In this document: piece after piece, positions 17,615 to 48,777 of the stretch
Numbering within the stretch: position 1 is the first letter of the stretch
Layout: every line of letters starts with the position of its first letter
Source of the DNA: a virus
Lineage: Duplodnaviria > Caudoviricetes
Strand: one strand, 5' to 3'
DNA length: 64,000 bases
IMG/VR virus record: IMGVR_UViG_3300029288_004596
Span: 128,001 to 192,000 of that record
Position numbers and translations under genes: made by a program
Notes under the pieces: generated by a model
The model's input: only the letters and a program-made list of their open reading frames with translations
What the model was told of the DNA's origin: nothing
Databases searched by the model: none

Positions 17615-17616
17615 AC

Positions 17617-20711: not shown

Positions 20712-21212
20712 ATGGAAAAGATGTTGAAGTACATGATAGTGATACTCGTCATAATGATAATACTGGCAGGGATAGCGGACAAACTTACAAGCATGTCTGA
20801 CAAGTTCTCCTATATCCTCACTGTTAACGACTCCTTAATTAAGTTTGAAAAAGACGAGTGCGGTTATGTCATCTGGGTGAATGGGGAGAAGTTTGTAAAC
20901 CCCAAAGAATCTAAGGACTTGAAGGTCAAAGATGTTATAGTGACTCTTCTTCCTAATAGCATTCTGGAAGTGACTTATGAGAAGCGCTTTATAGATATCA
21001 TGCCGCTCCAGAAGGGCGAGAAGAAATTTAAGACTAACAGGATGTTAGGGGATATTCCTTACAGGACTACGGAGTTTGAGTTTGATGAGCCTACCAGAGA
21101 CTATTTATTCTACTCTTCCAACTTCTGCGTCTGGGCTACAGTTCCAGTTAAGGAAGTGGAGATGCCAGAGGTTTTCAGGGAAGCTCTTCTAACATTTGAG
21201 GAAAGGTCATGA
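20712..21212 (+). CDS. Membrane-anchored hypothetical protein
   Basis: N-terminal hydrophobic helix. Confidence 0.55.
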   Translation: MEKMLKYMIVILVIMIILAGIADKLTSMSDKFSYILTVNDSLIKFEKDECGYVIWVNGEKFVNPKESKDLKVKDVIVTLLPNSILEVTYEKRFIDIMPLQKGEKKFKTNRMLGDIPYRTTEFEFDEPTRDYLFYSSNFCVWATVPVKEVEMPEVFREALLTFEERS

Positions 21213-21694
21213 CAGCGGAACAAGCTTTGTCGAAGTTTGAGGGCGTGGTTGTAAAGCTGCTGCGCCATTATGGAGTTCCTAGTTCCAACTGGGAAGACTG
21301 CATGCAGGAAGGCAGGCTTGGGATACTGAGAGGGTTGAATTCCTATAATCCTGACAGTGGAGCTAGCCTGTTTACATGGGTATATACCCATGTCAGAGGA
21401 GCCGTGAGGGACTACAGGAAGTCCTGTTCTTACAGTCTTCAGCCCCGCAATCCAAGTTATTCTCTAGGCTGTTATGGAACTGTGGGGGCTGCTGTGAAAG
21501 ATGATTATCATCTGGAGGAACAGGCTGTCCTTGAGAAACTGAGTTCCTGTAGGGATGGTTTGAGAAAGCAGTTCATAGTGAACAAACTCTTAGAGGGTTA
21601 TAACCATAAGGAGATAGCCGAGCTTCTCCATGTGGGACAGTCCAGGATGTCTCAGTTAATCTTCGACATCAGAAAGGATATATCTTGCTTATAA
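21209..21694 (+). CDS. RNA polymerase sigma-70 family factor (short, ECF-like)
   Basis: Region 2 EDCMQEGRLGILRGLNSYNPDSGASLFTWV; region 4 HTH GYNHKEIAELLHVGQSRMSQ. Confidence 0.85.
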   Translation: MTAEQALSKFEGVVVKLLRHYGVPSSNWEDCMQEGRLGILRGLNSYNPDSGASLFTWVYTHVRGAVRDYRKSCSYSLQPRNPSYSLGCYGTVGAAVKDDYHLEEQAVLEKLSSCRDGLRKQFIVNKLLEGYNHKEIAELLHVGQSRMSQLIFDIRKDISCL

Positions 21695-23871: not shown

Positions 23872-24813
23872 ATGGATTCCTGCGCAATAAGAGAGCATAT
23901 CGCTAGCAGGAAACATCCTGTAGAAGATAGGTACTCTATTCTATTTACAGTTCATCACCTCTATGGATTCTGGATTTCAGAAGCCAGGAGCGTCGCAGAG
24001 ATATTTATGGAAGGTTCTAATAGGGATGGTGGCACTCATTCGAGATGTGAGTATGGATAGTCTAAGTGAAGAGGTCATGATGATGGATCCTTGTCTTATA
24101 AGAGAGCACCTCATTAAAGGAAGGTTCTTCAGGGAAACCTGGTACTCTATTATGTTTTCAGTTCATGACCTTTATGGCGTCTGGCACACATATGCCAGGA
24201 GTATAATGGAATTCACTGAATATGCCCCTTCCAAGAGAAGCGCCTTCTCAAGGTGCGCATATGGATAGAACTGAACTTGTGGAACTGCTTCAGATTGATT
24301 CCCTTAGATTTACTATTGATAGTCTTGGTTTGTTTGCCCACTACTCTTTAGTGGTTGGCAAGTGGGTCTTTTATTCCCTCTACATAGAGGGGCCCTACAA
24401 GCCTAATCTTCCTAAGAAAGGGAGCGTTGAGGAGTTGATAAGAATAGTAACTATGATAGCCAGGGACTCTGAGAGTAGTTCTATTAGAAGGTGCTACTAT
24501 GGATAAGCCAGCACTAGTGGAGGAGTTTGTTATCAGAGGCAGTAGATCAACCTGCGATTACTCCAGGACTTTCTCTTTCTGGCTGAGCCTGATATCTATC
24601 TATGTGAAGGTGGAGGTCATCAGCCATATGACTAGTTCATCCAGGGATCATGCGTCTCATTTGGAAGTGTATGTAGATCACAGTTTAGATCTAAGTTCCC
24701 ATGTGGGAAAGAGGAAACTAATATCTCCTAAGTCCACTATTCCTCAGATAGTAGACGCTATACTTTTAGGAGTGAATACTGGAGACTCTAGAGTGAGGTG
24801 CAGACGTGGTTGA
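23872..24813 (+). repeat. RxxxG mini-protein array B, block 1 (4 CDS)
   Basis: CDS 23872-24060, 24053-24268, 24261-24506, 24499-24813; end RCEYG, RCAYG, RCYYG, RCRRG; ATGGATA[AG] overlaps. Confidence 0.85.
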
Positions 24814-24937
24814 CCGCCTTGCTCTCTTTGTGTTATTATATTGTAGGTGCATAAGATGAACTTCTTTCCTATATTAGCATGTGTCCTTGTGGGCATGTCC
24901 ATTATTATGATCCTTGTATACTTCTTAAGTAGGCGCC

Positions 24938-25345
24938 ATGAAAACTTTGCTCGTTATTCTTTTAATGTTGAGTGTCATCCCAGCATATGGGTATGTCATA
25001 GAATTCAAGGTGGAGACCGAGTGCTATAACAATTCTATCCCTATCAGTTCTTTTAGCATGTTCTTATACACCCTGCCTTATGGAGTAGATATCTCCGACA
25101 ACACAGGACTGACGCATGGGAGAATTGATGTTTTATCCATGGACTTGTTATGGAACTCAGTTCTCAGGCTTGATGTTAGCTACAGGGAGGTCATCACTAA
25201 GAACATTGTAATCAATGTCAGAGGAGAATTGAATGAAGAAAACATTGCTAGTCCTGGCGCTGTTGCTGGTCCCTATGATCTGTTCAGCGCAAGTTACAGC
25301 CACATGGGAGAGGGCGGGGTGGACCTTAAAGGCGTCCTACCTTAA
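24938..25345 (+). CDS. Secreted hypothetical protein
   Basis: MKTLLVILLMLSVIPAYG signal peptide. Confidence 0.55.
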   Translation: MKTLLVILLMLSVIPAYGYVIEFKVETECYNNSIPISSFSMFLYTLPYGVDISDNTGLTHGRIDVLSMDLLWNSVLRLDVSYREVITKNIVINVRGELNEENIASPGAVAGPYDLFSASYSHMGEGGVDLKGVLP

Positions 25346-25733
25346 TCCCAATCCTGTAGCTGGAAGTTCTATCAGCATTCCATTGGCTGAGACCTATGAG
25401 ATAGATGGGGTTCCAGCCACTACGGCTCCCATAGATATAAACGCTTCTCTCACAGTGGGCTCTTCCACTATTAATAAGCGTTGGTCCACTAAAGGAGCTT
25501 TGACATCTGTGCTTACCTTGGAGGCTCCAGTCACTAACTCAAGTGGAGAAGTTAAACTTTTAACTGATGGAACTCTGAGCGTAAAAGTTATAGCCCCCAA
25601 TGATGGAGTTATACATTCAGTGACATTTAGACTTGTGTATAAAAGTCCATTCATGGCGGCCTGGATGAATCTTATAGTTCAGGCTTATCCCCAGGAAGCG
25701 GCTTTGACCGTGCAGTCCTTGTTCAGTGGATAG
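25233..25733 (+). CDS. Secreted beta-rich hypothetical protein
   Basis: MKKTLLVLALLLVPMICSA signal peptide; GAGGAG RBS; ends in Gly with GTGGATAG overlap into array B. Confidence 0.65.
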   Translation: MKKTLLVLALLLVPMICSAQVTATWERAGWTLKASYLNPNPVAGSSISIPLAETYEIDGVPATTAPIDINASLTVGSSTINKRWSTKGALTSVLTLEAPVTNSSGEVKLLTDGTLSVKVIAPNDGVIHSVTFRLVYKSPFMAAWMNLIVQAYPQEAALTVQSLFSG

Positions 25734-28700
25734 AGCTTGTGTGCTAGAGAATGTAAAGTATGAGCCCCTAGATCCTAGGGGTTTTTCTTATTGTATAGGG
25801 GGCGAGTATCATGTTTTCTTTATAATAGATGGTGGCATTAGCGTCCCAAAGATTGTAAGGGCTGTGGAGAAGCATTTGTCATCTCCTATTATGAGGTGCA
25901 GGTTTGGCTAAGTACTACGTTTCTGCCACGGACAAGTGTGAACGCACGGAGTCTATTATTTGCTATTCCTTCAGGATGGGGATGACTCCCAGCTCCACAG
26001 CCAGTTTCCTAGCTTATGTTTACTCCTTACCTGAGCTTGTCCTCAAGGAAACTGAGGTAAGGTGTCTTCATGGGTAGCGACATCTGCAGACTTGTGGAGT
26101 GCTTCATAGACCTCTTCGGGTACAAGGAATACTCTACTCTCTATTGGGTATATTCTTTCCTTGAAAGAAGGGAGTACCTCACAGATAAGTACAAGGTGAA
26201 GTATGGGTAACAGTGATATCTGTGCGCTTATAGAGTTCTATATATATTGCCTTGAGAAAACAGATAGTGACCTCTTCAGGTGGCTATCCCTCTACCTTGA
26301 CAGCACAGAAGATACCACAGAGTTCTACAGGTTGGACTATGGATAAAGAGTCTCTCGCTCCTAGGGATAGTTGCGACATTATAGAGAACTGTATAGACCG
26401 AGTCTGGAGCTGGGATGTAGATGAGAAAACCGTTGCTGGATGGATCAAAGTTCTGGAGGTCACCAGGGACCTCGGGTATATGCCGGATGACCTAAGGGTG
26501 GAACATGGGTAAGGATATTTGCGAGGTAATAGAATTTTCTATCCGTGACTCCAAGAAGAGCGTTCTCTCCTGGGTATGGTATTACTTAGAAGCCTATCTC
26601 CCTTTCATCACAGACATGTGGAGGTGCAAGCGTGGGTGACGATATCTGCTTTCTGATAGAAGCTTCTATTTATAATTCCCAGAAGAATATTCTTTCTCTG
26701 GTGTGGTATTACCTGGAGGTTATTACCCCTTCCACTTCAGATATGTACAGGTGCAAACGTGGATAATGATATACCAGAACTAGTAGAGTATTATATATGC
26801 ACACTCTCTAAGTATGACCTCATGGAACCTTGTCTAGTATGGCTCCAGGACTACATGGAGGATGCAGATAACAGGATGGATAAGCTCAGGGCAGACTATG
26901 GATAATGATATCTGCGAGTTGGTGGAATACTATATCTGCACATCCTCCAAAGGAACTCCCACTCTTTACTGGGTGAAAGTCTATTTGGAAGAGACTATCC
27001 CTCTTATCTCAGATAGGAGACGGGCTACTTGTGGATAATGACATTTGTGAATTAACAGAGTACTATATAGACTACTGGGTTGAAGGGGAGCTCTTTTCTC
27101 CTCCGGATGTTTCCCGCTGGATCCTGGAGTACCTGGAAGACATGAGAAACTTTGATGATCTCAACAGAGCAGAAGATGGGTAATGACATATGCGAGCTAG
27201 TGGAATACTTTATCTACAACTGGCCATTCAGTGAGCGCATTCTTCCTTGGGTGCAGTATTACTTGGAAGAAAAAGCGCCTTTAGCGTCAGATAAGTATAG
27301 GGTGGAACGTGGATAATGACATATGTGAGTTGGTAGAATGCTATGTTTTCAACTTCTTTGAGGAGTTTCCTTTCATTAGACCATCTGTGCTCTGCTGGGT
27401 AATAAGATACTTAGAGGATCTAGAAAACTTTGATGACGTTGGCAGGGTAAACTATGGATAGAGACATATGTGAATTAATAGAATACTATATAACTGAGAT
27501 CCATTTCCCTAAGCGCACTTACATCACCCTTAGCTGGGCTCATGATATGCTGGAGGACGCCAGCTGCTTGATGGTCAGCAACTACCCTCCATATAGAGTA
27601 GACTATGGATAGAGACATATGTGAAATGGTAGAGCATTTTCTAATTTATGTTCATCCTCATAAGTTCCTTTATGCCTCTAGACACTACCACATGTGTCTC
27701 TTATGGGTATCTGATGCTCTGGGTGTTGTGGAGGACTTCTCAGAAAAGGGCTATCTTTTGTATAGGAACATGTATGGATAAGTGTTTTCTCCTAGATGGG
27801 CTAGCTGCAGACCTGTGTCGAACTATGTACATGGATGACCAGCTGAGGTGGGTAACCTCCTACTTCTGGTTCTACTTTGACATGATTCTAGTTGATGATA
27901 ACGGCGCTAAGTTTACTGTCTATACTCCTGGTTATAAGCATCTTAAAACCCTGCACTTCAAGGAGTCTGGTTTGTCCCTTGATCAGTTGATGGTGCTGGC
28001 AGTAGAATACTTTGAGGCTACCAAGAACAGGTGCAGGTATGGATAGCGATGTCTGTGACCTTGTCGAGTGCTATATATGTGATCGTCTCTATGGATTTGG
28101 AGCTGAGAAACGAGGAGTTCTCGTCTGGCTCCTTTGGTTCCTAGAGGACTTAGATAACTTTGATGATTATTGTAGGGTGCGCAGTGGATAGATGTTCTCT
28201 TCTGGATGAGTTGGACTTAGTATTGTCCCGCCCCTCCCTTAGGTCGAATCCTTTAGGGTGGTTAAATAGCTATATCAGGTTTCGTTTCTATATAACTTTA
28301 GTCCACGGCGATAAAGGAGTTGTGGTTGTGCCTTTAGATAGCATTGTTTACTCTGATGTCCTGGGCTTCAAGGAGGTTGGGTTGACTCTAGATGAAGTGG
28401 TGGGGTTAGTCTTGGATTATTTTCATGTATCCTCGGAGAATAGGTGCATGTATGGATAAGTGCGACCTCGTAGAGACTGTGCTAGTTAGGTGTCTGGACG
28501 TTCCTTGGCGTGTTGTAAGCCCTATAAACTACTGGCACTCTTATCTTAGGATTGATGTGAACCTCGAGAACCTGACTATGAAGCTTAACTATTTCCCAAA
28601 GTATTCAGGTGAGCTCTCTTTCCATGAGTCTACCTCTGTGTTCAATATATTCTATGGAAGGTTTGTATTTGGGCTTGACGCATACAGGTGCGATAATGGA

Positions 28701-31091
28701 TAAGTGTGATGTCATAGAGTGGACCTTGGCTAGATCCTTAGGATTACGCTGGGAGTCTGCGGAATCAATGGACTACTGGTATCGTTACATTAAGATGAAG
28801 GCTTTTGTCCCTTCCAAGACTATGCTCTTTAACTATAGAGGAACCCACTCGGAAACCTTCTCTTTCTATGAGTCTTCAGTATCCTTTAATAACTCCTTCC
28901 TAAAGTTTATAGGAAGATTCAAAGACTATAGGTGTAGGAATGGATAAATGTGTTTACTTAGAAGAAGTGCATAAAGGCCTTGGTCTGGGCAATGCGGCTA
29001 GAGCTGTGGGAGTGGTGATCACTGTGGGAGATGACTATGGCATGATAGCTAATGATCGTCCACTTCCTAGAACATTTAAGAGTCTCTGGCCCACTGATGA
29101 AGTGTGTCTGGATGTGTTTGGTCTGCTGGAACAGCAACCAGAGCACCCAGCAAAGTACAGGGTGTACTTTGGGTGACAACGGAGATATCTGCTCTCTCAT
29201 AGAATATTATATAGCCACCTATTTGTCTGGGGTGTTTAGAGAACATGCTTCCATCCCATATGTAAGCGTATGGGTTGGTGATTACGCTAAGGAATTAGAT
29301 AATTCTAAGTTGAGGTGTGTCTTTGGGTAGCGATATACCAGCATGGATAGAGTGGTATATAACCACCAGTTCTAACTTTCCTGCCAATGTTCTCCACTGG
29401 TATCTGGATCACTTCCTGAACACAGACTTAGGTCCATATACTAGGAATCAAATAGGATAAGCTATGAACTGTGATATCTGCAGGTCAATAGAATCTTGTA
29501 TACTTTATAAATCAAAAGGTCTAAGTATATCTATGTCTACTCTCTGGTATACTCGTAGGTATGTTGACACCTACCCAGAAAACTTGGATAACTCCAGGTT
29601 GAGGTGCTACCTTGGGTAGTGACTTATCAGAACTCATAGAGTGGTTCAACTCTTCCAGTTACTTTTATCCTAAGAGAGATCACTTCCATAACTACTTAGC
29701 CTATTTCATGGCTACTGAACTAGCTAGCGAGGCGAGGTGTGTATCGGGGTGACTTATGGACTATGATATCTGCGAGATAATAGAGTTCTATGTGGAGTGC
29801 TATAGGCAGCATACCTATGGGCCTAGGACTCTTCTACAGGATGTGCGTTGCCGCATTAGCGACTATCCTGATGAACTGAATATGCCAATGTTAAGGACTA
29901 TGTATGGGTAATGATATATCTGAGTGCATAGAGTGGAGTCTGAGTCTGTTCTGTCCCTGCTCTAGAGAAGGTCTCCTAGTTCATCTAGGGTATCTTTTCC
30001 ATACAGAGCTAAGTGACTTCACAAGGTGTATAATGGGATAATGTATGATATAGCTATCTGGATAGAATACTTTCATAACTATGGTTTCCCTGAGGATATG
30101 TTTCATAAGCTTATCCCAGATGGATGGAGTTTCTTCGACTCCTATTGTAGGTGTGTGGCAGGATGAAGTATGATCTTTGTGTGATACTAGAGTACTCTAA
30201 TACATTCAGGTTCTCCGTCCAGGGACTCTCTTATGCTCTCCATGTGTTGGAGGATGAACTCCACTACAGTCCTGTCTATAGGTGTTATCAGGGGTGACTA
30301 TGGATAGACCAGCTATATATGAACAGTGGATAGAGCATGAGGATAATGGTTACTTAATACTTTCTAGTAGGGTTTATCTTCCTTGGGAGGGAGTTCCTAG
30401 GTTGATGACTGACCGTATTATTTTCCCATCTCTTAGAACTCCACCTGGAAGAAGAGAACTTGCTAATAAGATACTAGAGACTCTGGATGGAAATCAGGAA
30501 CTGAGGGTGCACTACGGATGAAATGGGATGTCTGTGTCATGGTGGAATTCTGTATGGATCATGTGATATTTCCTAGAACTGGCCACTATGTCCTTTGTGT
30601 TTTGGAGGATGAGTATCATTATAATCCTATGTACAGGTGCTACTGGGGGTAATCATGGACATCTGTTGGTTAATAGAGTACTATATATACTATGTGGTTA
30701 GAGCTAATAATTCTCGGTGTCTTAAGTCTATCTTGAGAACCCTGGAGGAGGAAGAGTACTGGTCAGATGATCAGGCTAGGGTCAGTCGTGGATAACTATG
30801 GACATATGTGAACTGATAAATACATACATCACTATCATATCCGACTCTAAGCACGCCCTCTGTTTGAACTTTGTCCTTAGAAACCTAGAGGATGAGAGTT
30901 ACTACTATGAGGATGTGAGGTGTGAGTGGGGGTAGGCTATGGGACTGGATTTGTGTGTGGCAATAGAGTTCCTGGCTAGTCACTCCAGCTATGTTGACCC
31001 TGAGAGATCTTATTCAGAGTATGTGTTCAGTTTTATTGATCCCCGGGTCAGACAGTTTAATAATTCTAGCATGAGGAACGTGAATGGCTAA
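25726..31091 (+). repeat. RxxxG mini-protein array B, block 2a (33 CDS)
   Basis: Hand-checked CDS: 25726-25911, 25904-26077, 26070-26210, 26203-26346, 26339-26512, 26505-26639, 26632-26766, 26759-26905, 26898-27038, 27031-27183, 27176-27316, 27309-27461, 27454-27612, 27605-27781, 27774-28046, 28039-28191, 28184-28459, 28452-28703, 28696-28947, 28940-29176, 29169-29330, 29323-29460, 29464-29619, 29612-29752, 29756-29911, 29904-30041, 30041-30166, 30163-30297, 30300-30521, 30518-30652, 30655-30795, 30798-30935, 30939-31091; N-term DICE.[IV]E or DKC..hE, C-term [RK]xxxG. Confidence 0.88.
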
Positions 31092-34000
31092 TGAAGACAT
31101 CTGCGAGATAGTGGAGTACTACCTTGACAGTGCTTTTGATATTGATCCATGTGATATAATGTCATGGATAAAGAGTCTTCTAGAAGCTGAATGGACCGAG
31201 AAATCCCCCATATACATAGGGGACAATGTGTGGTCTACTGTGTTGGATGAGTACAGGAATAGAGAAGGATGAACTTAGATGTCTGTGGGTATATAGAATC
31301 CCTTATAATAATGTCTAATGCTCTTTGGCTACTTTTTCCTATGGACCCTGAGAACATGCTTACCAGATATGATAGTCCAAAGTACAGGTGTAACAACGGA
31401 TGAACCTTGATATTTGCAGACATGTAGAGAGTTATATAAGACTCTGGCCTCACATAGGACTCGATGTCCCTTTTAGGTTAGGTCATATCCTTAGATGTTT
31501 AGCTAGCCCAGGGTACAGGTGCAGGCACGGATGAACGTAGATGTTTGTTATTATATAGAGACTAGTATATCCATGTTGCACTGGCACCATATCAGGTCCT
31601 TGGCCTTCCCTCACGGATTCCAAATATCTGCTGAGAGGATGAATGATAGTAGGTTCAGGTGTGAGAATGGGTAATGATATCTGTGAAATCGTAGAGCACT
31701 TCATCTGGCTCAGGTACAGGAATGGTCCAGAGACATACCGAGCTCCGTTCCTTGTAGCTGTGTCCATAGTCTTAGGGACAGAACATCATCTTGTGGAGGA
31801 TTATGCGTTAAGAAACTTTAGGGGTTAAGATGTTGCTGGATATCTGTAGGATTAGGGAGAGACATATAATCCAGGTCTCTAGATTTAAGTTCACTTGTTC
31901 AGTTAAATTCATTCTTTGGACTAACTCTGGTAGGTTTCATAACTCTAACTTCAGGGTTTGGAATGGATAGACTATGGATATATGCAAACTTATAGAGAGT
32001 TATATAACAGCATGCAAATACGATCCTTTCAATCTTGTGCCCGTCCTTCACTGGGTGAGGAATGTCTTGTCTTCTCCCTCTGAGTGCCCAGAATATATAT
32101 GTCATAGGTGTAAGAATGGATAAACCAACTATATATGAAGAGTGGATAGTAAGCGGCATCTCATGCCTTCAGCTTTCTGAGGAAGTGCATCTGCCTTTGA
32201 ATGGAATTCCTATCCTTCCTAACATCATAGTGACCTTTCCCATAGTCCCTATTGTCCATAGTAGGAAGAAGTACGCTGAGAATGTCCTTCGGACTCTTGA
32301 TTCCTGTCAGAACCTAAGGGTGTATTATGGGTAGCAGGTGCATATGCTCTCTAGTAGAGAGCCTTATCAACGATAGGACTATATATGGTCTCTGGTTAGG
32401 AGCCCTCCTTGAGTGGGCTCTGATAATACTGGAGACTGAGAATCGCCTGGATGATCTCCGAAGGTGCTGCTGTGGATAACTCGGACATCTGCGAACTGAC
32501 AGAGTATATGATAGGACAGTGGATTGTGTATGGACTAGACCCTCCCTTTCCTCAGCCTACATTCTATGGATATCTTCTTGAGATACTGGAGGATGACTTC
32601 TTTGTAGAGGATGAAGTCAGGTGTAAACTTGGATAATGACATCTGTGAGATAATAGAGTACTCTATAGCTGATTGTGAGGTCCGAGACTATATGGAAGGA
32701 GAGTTCATGGATGAAGTCAAGGAGACCATGGAATCTAACTTTCCTTATGAGGACAGGTACAGGTGCTTCCATGGGTAACAATGATATCTGTGAGCTTATC
32801 GAGTATTCTATCTGGGATTACTTTGACTATGTCACTTTACATGAAGGGTTCTTAAAGGATGTGTTAGAGTGGCTAGAGGATACCACCTCTGATGGACACT
32901 GGTATAGGTGCGTAGATGGATAGCTTGGACGTGTGCAATATTATTGAGGAGACTCTCCAGGCTTGGATTATATATGGCGGTTTGAGAAACTATACATTCC
33001 TAGCTGAGGTTCAAGATCTCTTGGAGTGGGAGCTACTTTATGAAGATGTCAGCAGGTGCCGCTATGGATAACCTCAGCACATTCGATATCCCAGTGATGG
33101 TAGAGTCCTACATAGATAAGATTAGGGAGAACATAGAGTATAACCTTCTTTCCATGGTTCTAGTGGACATGGATTGCAGAGGACTGTACTTCTTTCTCAA
33201 TGCGTACAGGGTGTACTATGGATAACGTATATCAGATGTCAATGTCCAGGGTTGTTGAGTATAATATACAGGCTGAATATAATATTTCTTCTCGCCCCTT
33301 TGGATTTCGTTTCCTGAGGGTAGTTACTTGGTATCTTTATAATAGACCATCTGGAGGAGACCTCAGTAATCCAGAGTTCAGAGTATGGTACGGGTAACCT
33401 ATGTTATATGCTATAGCTAGGGATCTCTGTCACCTTATAGAGCTTTCCATTAGGGTAACTTATTCCACTGGCATTGATCTTAAAACTTCATCGAAAATTG
33501 CTTACTTCCTTGACTGTTACTATGACTATTATAATGACTCTGCCAGGAGGTGCTCTCATGGGTAGCGATCTTTGCGCTGGGGTAGAAACTTGTATAGGAA
33601 ACTATTATAGCGCTATATCTGATGTCATCTATAATTATGGGTCTACTCTCAGGTGGCTGTGCGTATACACTGACAAGGTGATGTGGACCTACTTGGAAGA
33701 CAGGAGGTGCAGGCATGGGTAGTGATCTATGCGCTGGGATAGAGCGTTGCATAGGGAACTATTATGGCATTGTATCTAATGTCATTTTCTATTATGGGTC
33801 TACTCTCCGATGGGTGGGACCACATATTAATAAGATTACATGGATCTACAATGAGAGTATGTGGGATGATTCTTCAAGTCGTTTGAACTGGTACAGGTGC
33901 GTAGATGGATAAGTGTGCGTTCTTTGATGGCGTAGCTTATGCTCCTCTAGGAGGAGAACTCATCAAGTTTACCATGGCTATAAAGGGAGTCTTCCCATCC

Positions 34001-37000
34001 ATGAATATGATAGTTTCCAGCCACCCTTGGTATGGAAGAGAAATCTATCTGGAGACATCACGCTGTCCATTCATAAGGGTTCCTGTTCCTGGAGTCCCTC
34101 CTTCCATAGAATCTTTATCAGAACTATATGGGAACCTCATATCTGTATGTGTCCCGGAAGCTAGGTGTATCAATGGATAAACCCATAGACAAATGCAACT
34201 GGGTGGAGAAGTATATTACCTTGGCATGTGATGGGTTTCTACGTTTTGCCTATGTGAAATGGGCTGTGAGGGATCTTGATAATGTGGAACATGATGTCTC
34301 GGATCTCTTGAGGTGCCTCTATGGATGAAATATTGACCCCTGTAGATAAGTGCTCTTGGGTAGAGATGTATATCAAAGCTTGTGTAGTACACTTTATTAC
34401 TCTCCCCGCCACTAAGGAGGGTATAGGAGGTATTCCTAAAAGAGACTACACCTATTGCTCAGAGTATACTAGGTGCTGTGGTGGATAAGGTGGCTCTCTT
34501 GGAAGGACTTGTAAGTTGTTACTGGTATAACTCTAATGACCCTGACCCTTCCTGGGTGCTCAAAGAGTTGGAGGATCTCTCTGAGGAAGTAGTTCCCTTG
34601 AGTCAGTGGGATGAGGACATAACGAGGTGTGAGTTTGGATAAGCCTGTGTGGATAGAGCTTTGGCTTACTGGGCTGTTTCCTTGGCAGGTAGATAGCATG
34701 AAGCTTTTTATAGAGTTGAGGGTATGGGACGACTCCTATAGGAAACATACTAGGAAGGACAGGGACCAAGAGAGATGTAAGAATGGATAAATGCGTTTGG
34801 CTGGAAGGATGGCTTATATCCTTATATCCTAAGACAGAGGATGAATACAGGACGCTGGCTAACTGGATAGCTAAGGAGTTCTCAAAACCTCATAGGTCTG
34901 CTAATCCTACAGTAAGGTGTCAATTCGGGTAATGAAATACTATAGAGCTTCAACTTACCCAAGAGATTTGCCAGCTATTCTAGAAGAGATAATAACTGAT
35001 GGCATAGACTGCTATTCTTTTAATGACTTGTTCTCTTGTGAACCCCATCTCTATTGGGCGTATAGGGTTCTTTGTTGCCGTATAGAACTAGATAGTAGTG
35101 CGAGGGTTAGTGATGGCTGACAGGAGGTTTCTTGGATAGATGCGCTTTCTTTGAAGGAGTATGTTCCTCCAAGTTTAAGGACAGATTCTATGCTGGGACT
35201 ATAGCTTTGGTAGGCGGATTATCAGTAAGAGTTTGGCTCTCCAACACTTTCCGTCTCCCCTTTGGGGTTTACAACATACACCTAGAGTCTCACTGCGACT
35301 ACTTCCATATAGTCATACAGGAAACCGCTAATCCCAGGATTGACCTTAATGAACTATTGTATGAGTTGTTCCTGGTAAATGCAGGAGACACTGTGAGGCT
35401 CTTTAATGGATAAGTGCGTGGCTATTGAGAAGAATATTAACCATTACCTGGATGACTATCTTCGGGTCCACTACTTTGACCTAATCGGTCAGTATGCAAA
35501 CTATTTAAAAAGGCTGGGTTCTCAAACTTGGATAGAACCCTCACAATCAGGTTCTGTAAGGGTGTATGATGGATAAGTGTGAGGCTATTGAGTTTAACAT
35601 CCTTGAATATATAGAGGTATACTATAGGTATGATTACTCCACCCTCTTCGAGGTTATAAAGGAAGTCATAGAAGATGTGCTTAGGATTGACTGGGAAAAT
35701 CAGGAGATCCTCGATACAGTGAGAGTGTATGATGGATAGATGTGAGACTATTGAGACATCTATTGGTTACTATGTAAAGGACTATTTTGGAAATAGAGAC
35801 TCTGAGTTTACCAAATTTTACGTGTGGTGTATTGAGAAAGCAGCCTCTCCTGATTGGATTGAGTCTCGCCACTTACTCCTAGATTCTGTAAGGGTGCACG
35901 ATGGATAGGTGTGATATTATTGAGGACAACATCTCTTACTATGTGAACACCTACTATGTTTACGGATACAGTATGGAAATGGTTAAGGGAATTCTTGATG
36001 AGGTCCTAGCACCTAGCTGGGTTACTCCTGATATGCCTGACTCAGTAAGGATAGATGATGGATAAGTGTGTGGCAATAGAGAGTAACATTCAGGAGTACT
36101 TATATTATACCTCAGGAAAAGAGATTGATGTTTATGGTTTAGCTGGGATTGCTCTGTCTCTCATCAAGGAGGTTCAGTCCCCTGACTGGAAAGCTCTTGA
36201 TCAGCCCAATTATATGAGGGTGCGCAATGGATAAGTGTGTTATAGTAGAAGACGCTCTCTTCTATGATGACTGTTATGATGAGGTTCCAGACTTCTATGG
36301 GGACTTCCTAGAAGGTCTTATTGAGTATGGCATTCGTATTCAGACTAACCTCTGGACTCATAAGAGCAGGTTCACATACTATAATGGGAAGCCTGGTCCT
36401 TGGTTTGCCACCAAAGGTCTGGATATCTGGGGTCTAAGGGACAAGGTCATGGGGTACCTTGTTGGGGTAGCTTATCTGGATCCAAATTTCAGGTGTGAGA
36501 ATGGATAAGTGCGCTGTCACTGAAAGATATATTATTCACTGCATGTTTCTATATCAGGATGATTGGGACTCTGCGAGTACTGTGGTCATCCTTATTAAAG
36601 AGGTACACTCCCCAGACTGGGTGGAACCCGAGTTCCCAGACGCGTCGAGGAACTACAATGGATAGATGCACTTTCTTGGAGACAACCCTTATCTACTATG
36701 ATGGGCCTTTCAGACAATACCTTCTGAGTCGTTGGAAGATGTATAGGGAAGAGGATATGATTTATGTTCCCCCTATACCTGATGTTGTCTTTGTTCCCAA
36801 TAGACTTAGCTTAGATGATGAACTCAGGTGCGTGTATGGATAAGTGTCTTATTATAGAAAGTGTTATCTTTCAATCTCTGCGTCAGGTCCGAGATCTTGC
36901 CAATGTTGGAAAAGAGGCTAACCTCTCTTTTGCTGTGTCTTATATTAATAACCATGGGGGCTGGCTTAAGCCCAGGGAAAGAAGGACAAGCGAGTATAGG

Positions 37001-37761
37001 TGTAGAAGTGGATAAATGTTCTATTCTAGAAGATGTCTTGTATACTGGTCATATCAATGACTGTCATACTCTGTTCCAGATAAGGAAGATTCTTCCCAGA
37101 GTGCTTAGCGAATACCTTGCTACTCTGCACTTTAATGCTATGACTAGGAAGGTGTACTATACAATAAACTATCCTGGAATGCTTTATCACTCTGTTGAGT
37201 TCGTTCCTGAACTCTCTCTTATTGAGGAACTAGAAAAGCTCTGTCTCCTCTATAAGGACTGGCTTGTATACAGTCCAGTTTGGAAGTGCGAGTTTGGGTA
37301 GACAACTAGTACAGCCTGTACTGCCCTGGGGATTGCTATGTTCTTAAGTTTCTGTTCAATAATAGAAGACTACATAAGCAGCGGTTTTTATATCCGAAAG
37401 GAACACAACCCTATGGCCAGGCTCCGCAAGGGACTAGAGATAGAAGCTAGGTTTCTGTTCCTGGAGGAGGGTTGTGATGCCGACGTGAGGGTAGAGTATG
37501 GATAGGTGCGCAGTCTACGAGTACATCTCAGCCTATGGACGGCGTGAGGTTCGTTATGGTATAATACAGTTTGCTCTGCATAACTTTGGTCCTGTATACT
37601 GGGACAACTACTATATTGGAGAGCTTCATACTATTGAACTGAAGAAGGATCCTCGCTCTGTTATTGCGATTGAAATTCACTGTGGGGAGGGTGTTGAGGA
37701 AGCTGTCAACTCTCTTCTATCGAATACATTACCGCCCAATGTAAGGGCGCACTCAGGATGA
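31084..37761 (+). repeat. RxxxG mini-protein array B, block 2b (38 CDS)
   Basis: Hand-checked CDS: 31084-31272, 31269-31403, 31400-31534, 31531-31674, 31667-31828, 31830-31970, 31974-32123, 32116-32334, 32327-32479, 32472-32636, 32629-32778, 32771-32923, 32916-33071, 33064-33225, 33218-33397, 33401-33565, 33558-33722, 33715-33912, 33905-34180, 34173-34328, 34321-34488, 34481-34642, 34635-34790, 34783-34932, 34932-35120, 35132-35413, 35406-35576, 35569-35739, 35732-35908, 35901-36065, 36058-36234, 36227-36508, 36501-36665, 36658-36843, 36836-37015, 37008-37301, 37338-37505, 37498-37761. Confidence 0.88.
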
Positions 37762-37765
37762 TGCA

Positions 37766-38497
37766 ATGGAAAAAATCTACGAAGTTATTAAAGCTCATGA
37801 TCACATGGAGTTGGCTTCTATAGCTAATACTGAAAGGGATACCCTTTCCAGGTACTCTGAGATCATGGATCGCCCACTGAATATGGCAGCCAGAGAAGGC
37901 TGTATAGACTGTTGCGCTACCCTTGTGGCAGCGGGAGCTCCTGTAGGTCATGGTTCTATAGATGACATAGGAGTTTTCTCAGCTCTCTTTGTAGCGGCTG
38001 GAGCCGATAAGTTAGAGTGCTTCAAGTGGCTGGCAGAGCATGGATTTCCTATGGATCCTACTCCCTGCTCCTGCGAGTTCACTCCTTTCACTTACGCTAT
38101 CTACAAGTCTTCAAGGAGCGTCTTTGATTATCTTATAGACAGGGTGGATGTAAACTTCTCCGCTCCAAGAGGATATCCTCCTCTCACAGTGGCTCTTCTG
38201 CATGCCTCTGACGCTATCTACTATGCCAACAGGCTCCTGGAAAAGGGAGCTGATGTTCATGGCAAGGACCAGAATGGGAATATCCTTTTCAAGAACTCCA
38301 ACGGAGAAATTAACTCCATAAGATGGCATGTTCCATTTACTGCGGCTGCGGCCAAAGGACATGTGGAGATAATGAAGGCTCTTGTGGAGAAGGGCGTGGA
38401 CGTGCATGTCAAAGGATTTGACAGGGATGCTATGGCTTGCGCCAAGATGACTCAGGCTCAGGCGGCTATCAACTGTCTCAAAGAATTAGGTTACTAA
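37766..38497 (+). CDS. Ankyrin-repeat protein
   Basis: PLNMAAREGCIDCCATLVAAGA, GYPPLTVA...LLEKGADVH, AAAKGHVEIMKALVEKGVDV; paralog of 96..686. Confidence 0.9.
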   Translation: MEKIYEVIKAHDHMELASIANTERDTLSRYSEIMDRPLNMAAREGCIDCCATLVAAGAPVGHGSIDDIGVFSALFVAAGADKLECFKWLAEHGFPMDPTPCSCEFTPFTYAIYKSSRSVFDYLIDRVDVNFSAPRGYPPLTVALLHASDAIYYANRLLEKGADVHGKDQNGNILFKNSNGEINSIRWHVPFTAAAAKGHVEIMKALVEKGVDVHVKGFDRDAMACAKMTQAQAAINCLKELGY

Positions 38498-38507
38498 GGA
38501 GGATACA

Positions 38508-39605
38508 TTGGGAGTTACTGTTAAAGAATGTGCCGGCATCCTAGGCAAGATGATGGATGCGGCTATAGAATCTGGGGACCCAAAGATGTTCCCAACTACT
38601 ATGCTCTGGGGACCTCCAGGCATAGGCAAGTCCAGCATTATAAGGCAGGTGGCTGAGGAAAGGAACATAGGTTTCAGAGATGTCAGGTTGTCCCTGGTTA
38701 ATCCTGTGGACCTGAGAGGTTTGCCCATTCCTAACAAGGAGCACACCACAGCCAACTGGATTCCTCCAGTGTTTCTTCCTAATGAGGATGATAACCCTGT
38801 GGGAATACTGTTCCTGGATGAATATAATGCGGCTAGGGAGTTTGTGCAGGTAGCCGCTCTCCAGTTAATCCTGGATAAGGCTATTGGAGAATATGTCATG
38901 CCTCCCATGTGGTTTATAGTGGCCGCTGGAAATAGGGTCACTGACCATGTCTATGTCCAGAAGATGAGTAGCGCTCATGGAAATAGAATGGTGCACCTGG
39001 ACATAGAAGCGGATCTTCCAACCTGGAGGAACTGGGCCTATGAACATGACGTGCATCCTTTAGTCATGGGTTTTGTTCAGCTGTTCCCCCATTTCTTTAT
39101 GCAGGAACCCGGCAACGCTACTGGCGGAACCGCTATAACTGCTGACTATAAGGGATTCTGCACTCCCAGGTCCTGGGCTGTGGCTTCTAGAATGTACTCT
39201 GTATTCAGAGGAGCTGAGGACAGGATTCTTTATGAGATACTGGGTGGAACTGTGGGACCAGAAGCTGCTGGTCAGTTTGTGGCTTTCTCTAAGATAGAAG
39301 AAGCCCTTCCTGACTTTGGACAGATACTGGATGGAACTGCCCGTGGAGAGATTGCTAAGGATGACCCAGCTATATCCTGGAGTTGCATCTCTGGTATGGT
39401 GGGAACATTGCTTAGAAGGAATCCTTTGGACGCTAGATCCATGTCAAACTTTATGGGTTGGCTGACTACGTGGCTGGCCAGCGAGTTTCAGACCAGTGCT
39501 ATGGTTGAGCTGGTGCACTCAGGAAGATGGAATGAACTTGTAATGTTCGCTCCTGTCTCTGAGTGGTACGAAGAGAACGGGAAATATTTAAAGGCTAACA
39601 TATGA
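38508..39605 (+). CDS. MoxR-like AAA+ ATPase
   Basis: Walker A GPPGIGKS, DLRGLP, Walker B ILFLDE, VAAGNR, TPRSW. Confidence 0.9.
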   Translation: MGVTVKECAGILGKMMDAAIESGDPKMFPTTMLWGPPGIGKSSIIRQVAEERNIGFRDVRLSLVNPVDLRGLPIPNKEHTTANWIPPVFLPNEDDNPVGILFLDEYNAAREFVQVAALQLILDKAIGEYVMPPMWFIVAAGNRVTDHVYVQKMSSAHGNRMVHLDIEADLPTWRNWAYEHDVHPLVMGFVQLFPHFFMQEPGNATGGTAITADYKGFCTPRSWAVASRMYSVFRGAEDRILYEILGGTVGPEAAGQFVAFSKIEEALPDFGQILDGTARGEIAKDDPAISWSCISGMVGTLLRRNPLDARSMSNFMGWLTTWLASEFQTSAMVELVHSGRWNELVMFAPVSEWYEENGKYLKANI

Positions 39606-40717
39606 ACGCTGCCGAGTATGTAAAGTGGGCTATTAACCAGATGATTCAGAGGCATCCATGGTTTGGGGTTATAGCTATGTATATTCCTGTAAAGGAAGAC
39701 CCCAAGATAGAGACTGCCGCTACTGATGGAAGGATTCTTATGTACTGCCCAGAGTTTATTGAGAAGGTGGCTACAGAGTATTCTCCTCAGCATGTGGTTT
39801 CCCTCATGATGCATGAGATACTCCATATCGCCTTAAAGCATCCTTCCAGAAAGATGGGAAGGATTCATGATCTCTGGAATATAGCCTGCGATATAGCTGT
39901 AGACTACATAATAAAGTCTTCAGGAATGCCCACTATGGAGATACTGGATCCTGAGACTGGGGAGCCCGCTTATGCTGAGTTTGACAATCTCTCAGCCGAA
40001 GTTATATACGCTAAGCTTCTAAGGCACGCTAAGATAGTATTGGTGGGGGGACCTGGCAACCATGATGAGTGGGGAACCTGCGAGTTTGATGTGGGAACGC
40101 TGGACCAGGTTATAAGGACAGCCAATGCTGTAGCTAGAAGAGCTGGGAAGATGCCCGGGTCTCTGGAATCTATGGTGGATAAAGCTCTGGCTCCCAAAGT
40201 CAACTGGAGGGAAGTGCTCCATAGATTCGTGGAGCCCAAGGCCGCTGACTATGACCTTATACCTCCAGACAGGAGATACCTGAATGAGATATATGATTAC
40301 GTGTATCTCCCTGATCTCAAGGAGTATGAGGAGATAACCAATATTATAATAGCGGTGGACACCTCAGGTTCCATAACTGATGATTTGCTTTCCCAGTTTC
40401 TGGGAGAGATCTTCTCTATAAAGGCTATGAGTCCCACTATCGCTATGAAGATAATAACATGTGACTGCGAGGTTCATGATGTCTTTGACGTGGATGGAGA
40501 AATGCCTAAGATAACCTTCAAGGGTAGGGGAGGAACCTCCTTTGTCCCTGTCTTTAAGGATATAGAGACTAAGAAGAGAGACCCCAAAGCCTTGATATAT
40601 TTAACTGACGCCTATGGGAACTTTCCTGTCAAGGCTCCGGAATATCCAGTGCTGTGGGTCATCTCTAATGAAGACGAACACGTTATTCCTTTTGGAGAAG
40701 TTGTGAGGCTGGTATGA
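39602..40717 (+). CDS. DUF2201-type metallopeptidase-VWA protein
   Basis: TAATDG, HEILH, WNIACD, MIDAS VDTSGS, GRGGT, YLTDAYG; adjacent to MoxR AAA+. Confidence 0.88.
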   Translation: MNAAEYVKWAINQMIQRHPWFGVIAMYIPVKEDPKIETAATDGRILMYCPEFIEKVATEYSPQHVVSLMMHEILHIALKHPSRKMGRIHDLWNIACDIAVDYIIKSSGMPTMEILDPETGEPAYAEFDNLSAEVIYAKLLRHAKIVLVGGPGNHDEWGTCEFDVGTLDQVIRTANAVARRAGKMPGSLESMVDKALAPKVNWREVLHRFVEPKAADYDLIPPDRRYLNEIYDYVYLPDLKEYEEITNIIIAVDTSGSITDDLLSQFLGEIFSIKAMSPTIAMKIITCDCEVHDVFDVDGEMPKITFKGRGGTSFVPVFKDIETKKRDPKALIYLTDAYGNFPVKAPEYPVLWVISNEDEHVIPFGEVVRLV

Positions 40718-40941
40718 GAATAGAAGACGCCCTTGATGAGTTAGAAGGGATGCTTCTAATAGATGGTCCTCAAGGCGTCAGCAAATACCTTGAAGGCCTC
40801 ATAGAAATTCATCCCGATCCTTTTCGCCTTGTGTCCAACAGGCTGGATAGGTTAGTCCCGGGCTGGAAGAATGACAAGACTGCCATATCTACAGCCACTA
40901 TAGCCGCCAGCGTCATGTTCATGGTGATGAGCGATGGATAA
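40714..40941 (+). CDS. Hypothetical protein
   Basis: Coupled ORF ending in Gly with ATGGATAA overlap. Confidence 0.55.
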   Translation: MRIEDALDELEGMLLIDGPQGVSKYLEGLIEIHPDPFRLVSNRLDRLVPGWKNDKTAISTATIAASVMFMVMSDG

Positions 40942-41239
40942 GTGCGCTCTTGTAGAGGAAACCCTTAGGGTTATAGATAAGTGGCCAGGGTTCTCTTGGA
41001 GTCTTGTCAAGAGATCCACTGTGGAGAAGAATAGTTTTTACTTTCTAGTCTCCCAGCTATGGTATCTGTATCCCTCTTCTCTTGGATGTTATTCCACTGG
41101 GGACTTAGGCTACTCTATGACTCTGCACATAACATACAACAATCATGTGGTTGGAGGATTAGTGATAGCCCCAACCTTCAAGGAGTTTATAGAGTCCATG
41201 CTTGTGTCTATAAACTATTTTACTAGGAGATATGTATAG
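40934..41239 (+). CDS. Orphan array-B-like protein lacking terminal Gly
   Basis: Starts MDKCALVEE, ends TRRYV. Confidence 0.65.
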   Translation: MDKCALVEETLRVIDKWPGFSWSLVKRSTVEKNSFYFLVSQLWYLYPSSLGCYSTGDLGYSMTLHITYNNHVVGGLVIAPTFKEFIESMLVSINYFTRRYV

Positions 41240-44200
41240 ATGGAATATCCTTTCAAGCTTGGAGACAAGATAATAGTTAATCCTCAGGCCCTGTTGGCTC
41301 CTGAGGAACTAGGTTCCCTGCATGCCATAGTCACTGGAGTACAGCTGTACTTGAGTTCTTATAGCTATGATGTGGAACTCCAAGATAACCCTTCTCAGTT
41401 TCTGCCCAACGCCACTATTCCCATGGCCAATGTGGAGTATCTGTCCATGGAAGCGAGTTCAGGCAAGGAGTTTAGGCACCTGCCATTTCCTGGGGACTCG
41501 GTTATGGTAGGGTCTCAGGTCCTTTCAGCTGTCTCAGCTCACTACTTCCTGGATGGACAAGGAGAGATAGCTGGCTCTGTGAGGTGCAATAAAGATGGGG
41601 TTTACTCCAAGCATCAGGTCAAGAATGTTACTGTAATCTCCAGTCTGGAGGAATAATGGCCAGTAAACCAAAAGTGTGTCCTTTTAGAGTAGGAGAGATA
41701 GTGGAATATGCCGGGGGTTTGTGGCATATCGCTTCTATGAAGACTTTTAAGACTACCTATTCTATGTATCTAAGAGAGATGAATGAAAACCTAGGAGACA
41801 TAGCGGCTATCAAGTCAGGTCTGTATGGACGTCTGCGGGAGGTTAAGGATACTGATGAGAAACTTATAATAAGAGCAACCCTCTTTGGACAGAGTTCTAT
41901 AAAGGACTTCTTCTCTGATCATAAGGATGACCATGCTGTGGCTGGGAGCGTTGTGCTTTACAACAATAAGATCCTGACAGTAAATAGAACTAAGGCTCAG
42001 GTCAGATACTCCATAGCGAATGATAAGTTCTTCTTTGATGGCGTAGCCACTCTCAGTGATGGAACCAGATGTTATCTCCATAATCTGTGTGTAATAGGAG
42101 AGGACTTGGAGGAGTAATGCCAAGACCTATCAAGTATCCTCTTCCATGGAAGCCTGGAGATGTATTCTACAAGGATGATCAGCTGGGATATATCTATAAG
42201 ATGGAACTCTATAAGACTGTGGCTTACGCCTGGGGGAAAACTCTATTGTCCACTAACTCTGCGGAGCAGCTTTTTTCCTGGCTCAAGAACGAAAGGGGCG
42301 GAGCCCAGGTCTTCCTCGACTATGTTAAGGATCTTAAGATAAGACCAGCCCGAGTCTGCAACTGCTCCAATCTCCTGGATGTACATCCTATAGATCCTGA
42401 TCACCTAAGGGACTTGGTTCCAGAGTCTTTAATAATACATAATGGTTCTATAGAGGTGGTTAAGCATATTGTTCATCTAATTTATATTAAGAATCCTTTT
42501 GGAGTCCTTGACCTCAAGACTTCCGCACACCTTATAGGTAAGGGAGATTGTTCTATAGAGGGTTGTATTCCATGCTCAGGAGAAGGACAATGGCTGGAGG
42601 AATAGAATATCAGATAGGAGACTTGATTAAGACTCCTGAAACTGTAGGGTACATCAGCAGAACTAAACGCTCTAGAGACGAGTACACTGTGCATATCAGG
42701 AACATGACAAACTTCTCTCCAGACAGGCTTCCCAAAGAAGAGGACTTCCAGGACCTGAGAGTCTTCAGAGCTCTTGCCTACGACTCGACAGCCTTTTATG
42801 TTCCAGAAGCGTTAGAGCATCTTAACATAAAAGGAAGGACCTCTATCATGGATCTAGTTCCTAGAAAAGGAGAGGATAATCTTTTCGTATACCCTGGCAG
42901 TCTAGTGTTGTCCGAGGGCAGAATTTGTGTGGTTACTTCAGTAAGCCATATAATATACAGGAATGATATCGGTCCTGATTCATTGTGCACTTATATAAGA
43001 TGTGAACTTGGGGAGGTCAAAGCCAACAACTTTGTTTTGTTGGAGGACTTGGAGGAATAATGGCTTCTAAGAGAGTGTCCTGTCCTTTCAGGGTAGGAGA
43101 CGTGATAAAATATGAAGGAAGTCCCGCGCATGTAGTTGGAGTAGAGACTTGGAAGACTACCTATTCTATAAGCTACAGGAGATTTACCGCTGCCATAGAG
43201 GACGAACAGACTCTCAGGAGATGCCTCTTTGGTCTGCACTATTGTATAAGGAACGCTGAGAAGGTTAAGATAGAAAAAAGCGATATCCTAGGGCACACTT
43301 CCATAACCAGTCTCTTTGAAGGGGTCAGGCAGCATCCTGTCACAGGAAGCCTTGTGGTGTATGGAGACAAGATGTATTCAGTTTCCCATGTCAGTGTCTA
43401 CGCCCGCATTTACGCAGACGCTTATTATGTGGAAGGCACAGCTAGAATAGATGGAGGTTACAACCATTTTATCAGCAACCTCACTCTTGTGGGAGATGAT
43501 CTAGAGGAATGAAGAATTACAAGTGTCCTTTCAGAGTAGGGGATATAGTAGTCTGCGATGGAATACATGGGATCATCCATTACATGGAGCAGTATAAGAC
43601 TGTGGCTTATTTATGGATCTGGTATGGAGATCATGATAACCTCAAAGATATTTACTGGAATGGCAACTCTTATAAGGTTAGAGTTGACAACCAGCGAACT
43701 ATAGAGAAGAAACCCATGTTTAGCCATAGTTCTTTTTCTGAACTCTATATGGATGCAGAGGACTATCACCCTATGGTTGGGGATCTGGTAATCTCTTCCT
43801 CTGGAATCCATAAGGTCGTCCATACTGACTTGGGAGTCAACATAGTGGATGACACTTTCTATATCAGAGGACATGTTAAGTTAGATAATGGGGATATGGT
43901 AAGGCTTTTTGATGTCTCTTACCTTGCGGGAGGAGACTTGGAAGAATGAGCAAGAAGAGAGTGGTCTGTCCCTTTAGAGTGGGAGATATAGTAGAGTATA
44001 ACAATCGCAAGTATTGTATCACATTCCTGGAGACTTGGAAAACCACCTACTCTATGAGTCTTTTAAAGCTCAACTCGGAGGCCAGGGATGTGGAGGAACT
44101 TAAGAACTTCCTTGGTGGAAGAGCTATTAATCACAGGAATGCTGAAGGATTCCCTATGAAGAAGAGTTCTATACTGGGATACTCCTCTATGCTTGGACTC

Positions 44201-48436: not shown

Positions 48437-48466
48437 CAGTTAACAACTGCTACGCTAGGAGAATCT

Positions 48467-48769: not shown

Positions 48770-48777
48770 GAGATACT

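Follow-up and report, generated by a model that had tools for sequence, protein, structure and literature searches.

A chained array of 75 predicted mini-protein genes with conserved ends in an uncultured tailed phage

A tandem array of small ORFs

We describe here a 14-kb array of tandem open reading frames (ORFs), hereafter Array B, in the genome of a novel, uncultured tailed phage of 217 kb. The window analysed is a stretch of 64,000 bp corresponding to bases 128001-192000 of one 216,899-bp virus record (IMGVR_UViG_3300029288_004596; CheckV completeness of 93%). The array, which amounts to 6.4% of the phage genome, occupies positions 23872-37761 of the window. An earlier note on this DNA had claimed 75 tandem mini-protein ORFs in this region, and the chain rebuilt from stop-to-stop frames contained them as claimed, apart from one insert of 912 bp. 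The 75 ORFs lie on the + strand at 23872-24813 and 25726-37761, encode 41-104 aa (median of 53), and tile 99.5% of the 12,978 bp outside the insert. Members 1-4 (62, 71, 81 and 104 aa, respectively; 23872-24813) are joined by 8-nt overlaps, and members 5-75 make up the rest of the reconstructed chain (25726-37761). The start codon is ATG in 59 members, GTG in nine and TTG in seven.

All 75 members terminate in Gly, encoded by GGA (49), GGG (21), GGC (three) or GGT (two). The residue four positions before it (position -5 from the C-terminus) is Arg in 73 members and Lys in two, which reproduces the counts given previously. The next residue (-4), described as usually Cys or Val, is Cys in 42 and Val in 19 of the 75. 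The conserved tail can be written as [D/P]-x-[Y/V/L]-R-[C/V]-x-x-G. Across the entire genome, an [RK]-x-x-x-G end is shared by 85 + strand ORFs with a length of 35 aa or more, and 76 of them are found inside the array (the 75 members and one out-of-frame shadow). Outside the array, such an end was found in only nine of ~1,370 + strand ORFs.

Could the region be an untranslated, diverged DNA or RNA repeat, in which the open frames are incidental? We consider this extremely improbable. No in-frame stop occurs in the 4,382 codons of the array, in which ~269 stop triplets are expected from the composition of the region itself. A codon model trained on the large genes of the phage assigned the annotated frame as the best one to 73 of the 75 cores, with a margin resembling that of control genes. 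Furthermore, synonymous sites vary under constant residues, a start codon and a Shine-Dalgarno (SD) site are present at every junction between the members, and neither an Rfam match nor a structure signal at the junctions was detected in the array.

The N-terminal segment

The shared start reported as D-x-C/P-x-x-h-E (x, any residue; h, hydrophobic residue) was located in 71 members, with the third position being Cys in 57 and Pro in eight. The codons for the motif in the 71 anchored members are mixed: Asp is encoded by GAT (57) or GAC (14), Cys by TGT (31) or TGC (26), Glu by GAG (44) or GAA (24), and Ile by ATA (24), ATT (nine) or ATC (nine). Because synonymous sites vary freely, the N-terminal helix, D-x-C-x-h-h-E-x-x-I in its longer form, is under selection at the protein level, in agreement with the earlier proposal. 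The earlier note had also raised the possibility that Cys residues in the two termini come close to each other. The N-terminal and C-terminal Cys co-occur no more often than expected by chance (32/25/10/8), which argues against an obligate clasp, and a disulfide or metal clasp of this kind is thus unlikely.

In T4, capsid targeting sequences are N-terminal propeptides of 10-20 residues, and the prohead proteases of T4 and giant phages cut after Glu (PMC5694885). It is conceivable, albeit quite improbable, that the N-terminal segment of the array members is such a T4-type propeptide, and that the members are packed in the prohead, trimmed after the Glu and injected as a counter-defence panel. 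In 68 of the 71 members, the h-h-E is indeed found at residues 7-13, where the most conserved part of the N-terminus ends, and the phage possesses a portal and an HK97-type major capsid protein, both on its - strand arm. Nevertheless, the conservation runs on past the Glu (x-x-I), the residue immediately after the Glu is often aromatic, the motif occurs in no larger protein of the genome, and the array resides in the non-structural + strand arm. The T4-type protease (PF03420) was not detected in the phage, a search in which control genomes were equally silent, and the proteins encoded between the portal and capsid genes match no protease family.

Divergence and predicted fold of the members

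Pairwise identity among the members is 22% in median and 59% for the closest pair. We found no recent duplicates, and synonymous sites are saturated. To judge from these sequence comparisons, the 75 members form one old paralogous family. No long DNA repeat is present in the array, and repeats are limited to 20-77 nt around the junctions, with 60-85% identity. Neither a reverse transcriptase nor a diversity-generating retroelement was found. Two members that are otherwise dissimilar share 24 of 25 nt at their C-terminal junctions (32898-32922 and 33887-33911). This match, of borderline significance (roughly estimated at ~0.08 over all pairs), may have been left by recombination or by conversion between the two junctions.

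Two subfamilies were recognised in the alignments. The 41 short 'D-I-C' members, located mainly at 26070-33912 on the + strand, can be aligned over two helices, D-x-C-x-h-h-E-x-x-I followed by L-x-x-V-x-x-x-L-[E/D]. The remaining members have the N-terminal helix in common with them in the form M-D-K/R-C, and these 'M-D-K/R-C' members are found mainly at 27774-29176 and 33905-37761 on the same strand. The segment between the fixed ends ranges from 25 to 85 residues and has diverged to ~22% identity. The cores are thus as variable in sequence and length as had been stated, but they are not featureless, as the 41 short members share the second helix.

The AlphaFold2 (AF2) model for the short members is a two-helix hairpin (helices at residues 5-15 and 22-33) with a predicted local distance difference test (pLDDT) score of 74. 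Packing of the N-terminal helix on the C-terminal tail had been put forward as a structural check; in the model, the tail is poorly defined (pLDDT of 52-61). For a long member, a helix, four strands and a second helix were modelled with low confidence (pLDDT of 59). The net charge is negative in 59 of the 75 members and a transmembrane-like segment was predicted in only two, suggesting that most members are acidic, soluble proteins.

Gene junctions and the C-terminal codons

The genes in the array are co-directional, and 71 of the 74 junctions lie between -8 and +3 nt. At 55 of the 74 junctions the neighbouring genes overlap by 8 nt, and the other 19, together with the end of the last gene, show different geometries. 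A typical junction (28442-28462, + strand) consists of AGG-TGY, encoding Arg-Cys with the putative SD site at -10, four bases, and the octamer ATGGATAA, which holds the start of the next gene together with the last codon (Gly) and the stop codon of the gene before it. At such junctions the NTG start overlaps the last two codons of the upstream gene, and the upstream stop falls inside codons 2-3 of the downstream gene. In the logo of the 55 overlap junctions, the bases of AGG occupy -10 to -8 in 54, 54 and 50 cases, respectively, and are followed by a T/G-rich pair, five free bases, and then NTG, G, R, T, A and R. The AGG found upstream of 155 other large ORFs of the genome peaks at the same -10 position.

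The codon for the Arg at -5 is AGG in 65, AGA in seven and CGG in one of the 73 members with this residue. All three codons listed earlier therefore do occur, but their use is strongly skewed. AGG accounts for only 46% of Arg codons in the genome (AGA, 45%) and 43% in the array cores, a highly significant difference (p=2e-14). At residue -2, a restriction to codons that end with AT, TT or GT is seen solely at junctions with an overlapping next start. These data suggest that the Arg codon AGG is the SD core of the next gene, and the Gly codon overlaps the start of that gene. The C-terminal motif is hence not the pure protein tag that it had first been read as.

Intragenic SD sites at overlapping gene pairs are established in termination-reinitiation coupling (Huber et al. 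2019, PMC6728339), and the layout of the junctions fits this mode of coupling. As in the pairs described in that study, the SD site of Array B lies inside the upstream gene, stop and start overlap, and co-directional genes are tightly packed. Unlike those pairs, in which overlaps of 4 nt or 1 nt are common, Array B repeats an 8-nt overlap 55 times in one paralogous family, and its SD codon and overlap codon are also conserved as amino acids. The genes are most probably transcribed as one long polycistronic mRNA, on which translation would be handed from gene to gene via the stereotyped junction, with the AGG, which is placed five codons ahead of the stop and mostly continued by TG or GT, serving as the SD core at -10 of the next gene. 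Terminator-like sites in the array were no more frequent than expected by chance, and we detected no conserved RNA hairpin hiding the SD site (unpaired probability of 0.36 at the SD versus a mean of 0.40). G-rich gene ends are not a genome-wide rule, as judged from 323 other gene tails. The possibility of one polyprotein being made by programmed frameshifting was ruled out, as every junction carries an NTG start and no slippery site was found.

Is the tail a protein feature?

If the terminal codons are a translation signal, R-x-x-x-G may be nothing more than a consequence of the ribosome-binding site embedded there and of the overlapping start, leaving the N-terminal helix as the only protein feature. 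This alternative is unlikely in our assessment, but several observations speak for it. The bias to AGG falls on the exact -10 position, and the tail is poorly ordered in the AF2 model. A collapsed unit of eight codons, M-A-D-R-R-F-L-G-stop, which is flanked by two standard junctions (35113-35139, + strand), still retains R-x-x-x-G. An unrelated 75-aa gene downstream of the array (40714-40941, + strand) ends in Gly with no Arg at -5, at a junction of the family type; its Gly can be ascribed to the start of an outlying family member, ATGGATAAGTGC, which overlaps the end of the gene. This outlying member (101 aa; 40934-41239, + strand) bears the N-terminal motif but ends in R-R-Y-V with no terminal Gly, and the gene that follows it is a non-member. 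Finally, at junctions with gaps of +1 to +3 nt, the GG of the Gly codon is placed at SD distance from the next start.

Four lines of evidence nevertheless argue against the by-product explanation. First, the ten codons at -5 that are not AGG (AGA in seven members, AAG in two, CGG in one) all encode Arg or Lys. Among the nine single-base neighbours of AGG, only AGA, AAG and CGG keep a basic residue, and the probability of ten such departures by chance is (3/9)^10 = 2e-5, or 0.02 if only transitions are considered. In nine of the ten, the GG core required for an SD site is lost, while GGG and TGG, which would keep it, were never seen. Second, an overlapping NTG, taken earlier to force the terminal Gly, determines no more than the first base of that codon, which could still encode any of Gly, Ala, Val, Asp and Glu. 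At overlap junctions where the second codon of the next gene does not encode the Asp of the motif, its first base is G in 32 out of 32 cases, whereas comparable second codons at other geometries (AAC, AAG, AAA, TAT, TTG and others) begin with G in only two out of 13. As the next protein needs no G at this position, the G after the start appears to be kept for the upstream Gly.

Third, the terminal Gly is retained at all seven junctions with overlaps of 4 nt or 1 nt, where it is neither forced by a start nor located at SD distance. Fourth, the spacing from Arg over three residues to Gly and the stop is constant in every geometry, including all 20 non-standard gene ends. The junctions with gaps of +1 to +3 nt or overlaps of 4 nt and 1 nt are clustered at 29460-31974 (+ strand), and R-x-x-x-G-stop is kept throughout this cluster. 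The earlier count of about 17 members keeping the Gly with no overlapping NTG is close to the 19 junctions plus the last gene obtained here. Weaker preferences are also seen outside the SD site, namely Asp at -8, in both of its codons, and Tyr, Val or Leu at -6. The proposed constraint on the terminal Arg and Gly at the protein level thus survives both the codon-departure and the second-codon tests. With the N-terminus and the tail both showing signs of such constraint, the conservation does not appear to be confined to the DNA level. On this sequence evidence, we regard the tail as dual-coded, being a translation signal and a constrained protein feature at the same time.

Other tandem paralogue families in the same arm (window positions 7482-9567, 11700-18838, 41240-44413, 53446-54728 and 56681-57596) end in [G/N/D]-[Y/W/L]-E-E-stop, and their Glu-Glu codons make up an SD-like GAGGA. 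GAGGA is retained even if the downstream ATG overlaps the stop (ATGA), in which case the string directly adjoins the start. The same dual-coding question arises for these families as for Array B.

Searches for relatives

The earlier note knew of no described family resembling the array, and the profile, DNA-pattern and fold searches conducted here matched only this phage. A profile built from the 41 short members, searched against 5.8 billion proteins and 1.84 billion representatives, recovered only ORFs of the phage itself, as did a profile of the long members. No significant family match, F-box included, was obtained in Pfam, PHROGs or the PDB sequences. Back-translated motif scans of IMG/VR and the JGI metagenomes gave no match, and neither did tblastn of two long members against phage genomes. 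In IMG/VR, the DNA pattern of a single junction had 30 isolated chance matches, the triple-junction pattern had none, and the neighbouring AAA protein used as a query led to no related locus. The triple-junction pattern had 99 matches in metagenomes; the loci that we read were satellite-type tandem repeats, and the N-terminal motif was present in none of the 99. ESM Atlas offered no usable look-alikes, and Foldseek searches with the models returned nothing at E<=0.001.

In a public assembly (ENA ERZ27247363, contig k141_3129331), about a third of the array members are among the called genes, and some of the calls in the array are on the wrong strand or have a wrong start. Gene callers of the standard kind thus overlook most of the array, and the missing and misplaced calls explain why hardly any trace of the family exists in protein databases. 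A second assembly record showed no difference in the 20 kb compared, and thus supplies no population variation.

Insert, relics and the outlying member

The family comprises the 75 array members, the outlying copy and three decayed relics, one of which is the collapsed unit of eight codons described above. Elsewhere in the genome, the N-terminal motif was found only once, in the outlying member. The interruption of the array (24814-25725, + strand; 912 bp) contains non-family ORFs with no match in Pfam or PHROGs. Two of them, 24938-25345 and 25233-25733, overlap each other and have N-termini resembling signal peptides. At the edge of the insert, a relic ORF of 17 codons (24806-24859, + strand) starts at the usual overlapping GTG within member 4 and retains an R-C pair; its AGGTG is located 6 nt upstream of the ATG at 24856, from which a small hydrophobic ORF runs to 25029. 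The third relic, also of 17 codons (37294-37347, + strand), sits in the only long gap (36 nt) of the array. A palindrome, AGTACAG-(0-1)-CTGTACT, is present in eight copies in the window, one of them (37308-37322) inside this third relic and the others at 5389, 9873, 18389, 20074, 41338, 52179 and 59088.

The phage and the genes around the array

The phage RecA is only 31% identical to its top phage match, indicating that the phage represents a deep new lineage. Every convincing gene of the window is on the + strand, and the GC skew is positive across the whole window. This arm encodes ribonucleotide reductase, RecA/UvsX, an RNA ligase, an N6/N4 DNA methylase, two sigma factors, an ankyrin protein, a MoxR-like AAA ATPase with a DUF2201 partner, GroES and a ThiF/E1 protein. 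The genes for the ankyrin-repeat protein, the MoxR-like AAA ATPase and the DUF2201 protein (VWA plus a putative metallopeptidase) lie between the array and the outlying member (37766-38497, 38508-39605 and 39602-40717, respectively, within 37766-40717 on the + strand), and their products could be partners of the mini-protein family. One phage sigma factor (regions 2 and 4; 21209-21694, + strand) is encoded ~2 kb upstream of the array, and machinery directed by the phage may transcribe the array. The second phage sigma factor is encoded at 45646-46368.

The dozens of short paralogous ORFs are reminiscent of prochlorosin-type libraries, in which a constant leader precedes a variable core, and one may suspect that the array encodes precursors of ribosomally synthesised and post-translationally modified peptides. 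In Array B, too, a constant N-terminus precedes a variable remainder, and Cys is frequent. This explanation is very improbable: the 'leader' in Array B would be only ~10 residues, the C-terminus is fixed as well, and the members, which reach 104 aa, are predicted to fold (as a hairpin in the short ones). Among the flanking genes scanned (methylase, ankyrin, AAA and DUF2201 proteins, and sigma factors), we recognised no gene for tailoring, export or cleavage.

A more elaborate alternative involves the ThiF/E1-type adenylyltransferase encoded ~10 kb downstream of the array (47569-48240, + strand; Pfam, E=2.6e-21). E1 enzymes act on a C-terminal Gly, and Arg72 of ubiquitin stands at -5 from its Gly76. 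Furthermore, the C-terminal tail activated by Cap2, an enzyme of the cyclic-oligonucleotide-based antiphage signalling system (CBASS), belongs to a protein that does not resemble ubiquitin. The mini-proteins might accordingly be substrates or adaptors of a phage ubiquitin-like conjugation system, with their tails adenylated by the E1 and ligated to targets. Like ubiquitin-like modifiers, they end in a free Gly and have a basic residue shortly before it, both apparently selected in the protein, and the models suggest a flexible tail. We nonetheless judge the substrate hypothesis improbable. The models, a helical hairpin or helix-strands-helix, contain no beta-grasp fold; there is no Gly-Gly, the penultimate residue being free; and the tail doubles as a ribosome-binding site. 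In addition, the E1 already has a candidate ubiquitin-like protein (Ubl) of its own, an adjoining 67-aa ORF ending in R-I-K-G-N, which is located, together with GroES, 3' of the E1 gene.

The JAB assignment of the gene upstream of the ThiF/E1 (region 46821-50199) is weak (E=0.098). Using the E1 protein as a query, we found a distantly related phage in a Logan contig of 58.6 kb (SRR15035648_11736; 54% identity). The two share the order of E1, a Ubl-sized gene, anaerobic ribonucleotide reductase (NrdD) and RecA, and the contig also carries a single-stranded DNA-binding protein, a sigma factor, a run of ~150-aa paralogues and a homologue of the window ORF 4722-5195. In the ~40 kb of the contig examined, the E1-Ubl module is kept, which speaks against the array members being E1 substrates, as neither Array B nor gene ends of the E-E type were found there.

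In a related but distinct scenario, an E1/E2 ubiquitin-like system of the phage itself would activate the Gly tail, or the N-terminal helix would dock to such a system, and the variable bodies would serve as targeting modules or modifiers for diverse host proteins. This scenario is rather improbable; if true, a bacteriophage would have its own viral equivalent of the adaptor families of the F-box type.

A panel of diversified binders?

We favour the reading that Array B encodes an old tandem family of mini-proteins, translationally chained and with dual-coded ends, which constitutes a diversified panel of small acidic binders with a common handle; its probability is, in our rough estimate, about 0.6. 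The conserved ends would then be a common scaffold or handle for the variable bodies, and the panel may act as binders or inhibitors against varied host or competitor targets. In anatomy, the array is most like such a panel of small binders or inhibitors, because it combines a constant N-terminal helix and tail with diverse bodies, its products are small and acidic, 75 copies are intact, and it lies in an accessory arm with other paralogue families. The antibody-like library imagined in the earlier note is supported only in part; the likeness remains an analogy, and we identified no common partner by which the termini would be docked or ligated.

The closest documented parallel is the internal proteins of T-even phages, diverse injected inhibitors of host defence whose sole common element is a short capsid targeting sequence, removed by a cut after Glu (PMC3012670, PMC5694885). 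IPI, IPII, IPIII and the variable loci resemble the array members in being small and very diverse, with a short conserved N-terminal segment ending at Glu. The differences are also clear: no sequence similarity was seen, and Array B has 75 copies, a fixed C-terminus and conservation extending beyond the Glu. In big DNA viruses and in accessory regions of phages, large tandem multigene families combine a constant docking motif with a variable part, examples being the F-box and ankyrin families of poxviruses and giant viruses. They are comparable in that tandem paralogues in an accessory arm share a constant short motif and diverge in the remainder, and an ankyrin gene adjoins the array. Array members differ from them in having no F-box, Pfam or PHROG match and in being only 41-104 aa.

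Several points weigh against the binder-panel reading. (i) AGG is overused even where it lies too far upstream to serve the next start (12 out of 14; p=0.003-0.04), and neither an SD site nor a constraint on the protein fully explains the excess at these distant sites. (ii) The junctions of unusual geometry are grouped at 29.4-32.0 kb and could go back to a few events, so that they are not fully independent. (iii) The tail, regarded above as a protein feature, is the poorly defined part of the AF2 model. (iv) As no relatives were found, dN/dS per site across species was not computable, and purifying selection was deduced from the paralogues only. (v) The proposed function as a panel of binders is an analogy.

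Array B thus represents a new family of proteins; its arrangement is of a known kind, taken to an extreme in scale. We know of no phage family with the copy number of Array B, and if the proteins are made, it would be, to our knowledge, the largest tandem family of mini-proteins in a phage. The junctions offer an unusually clean natural case of dual coding, in which five codons would act at once as the tail of the protein, ribosome-binding site, start and stop; with 75 diverged replicates, selection at the two levels can be told apart. An intact family with such a copy number and divergence suggests many distinct targets, which makes the array a candidate reservoir of new small inhibitors acting on bacterial functions or on defence systems.

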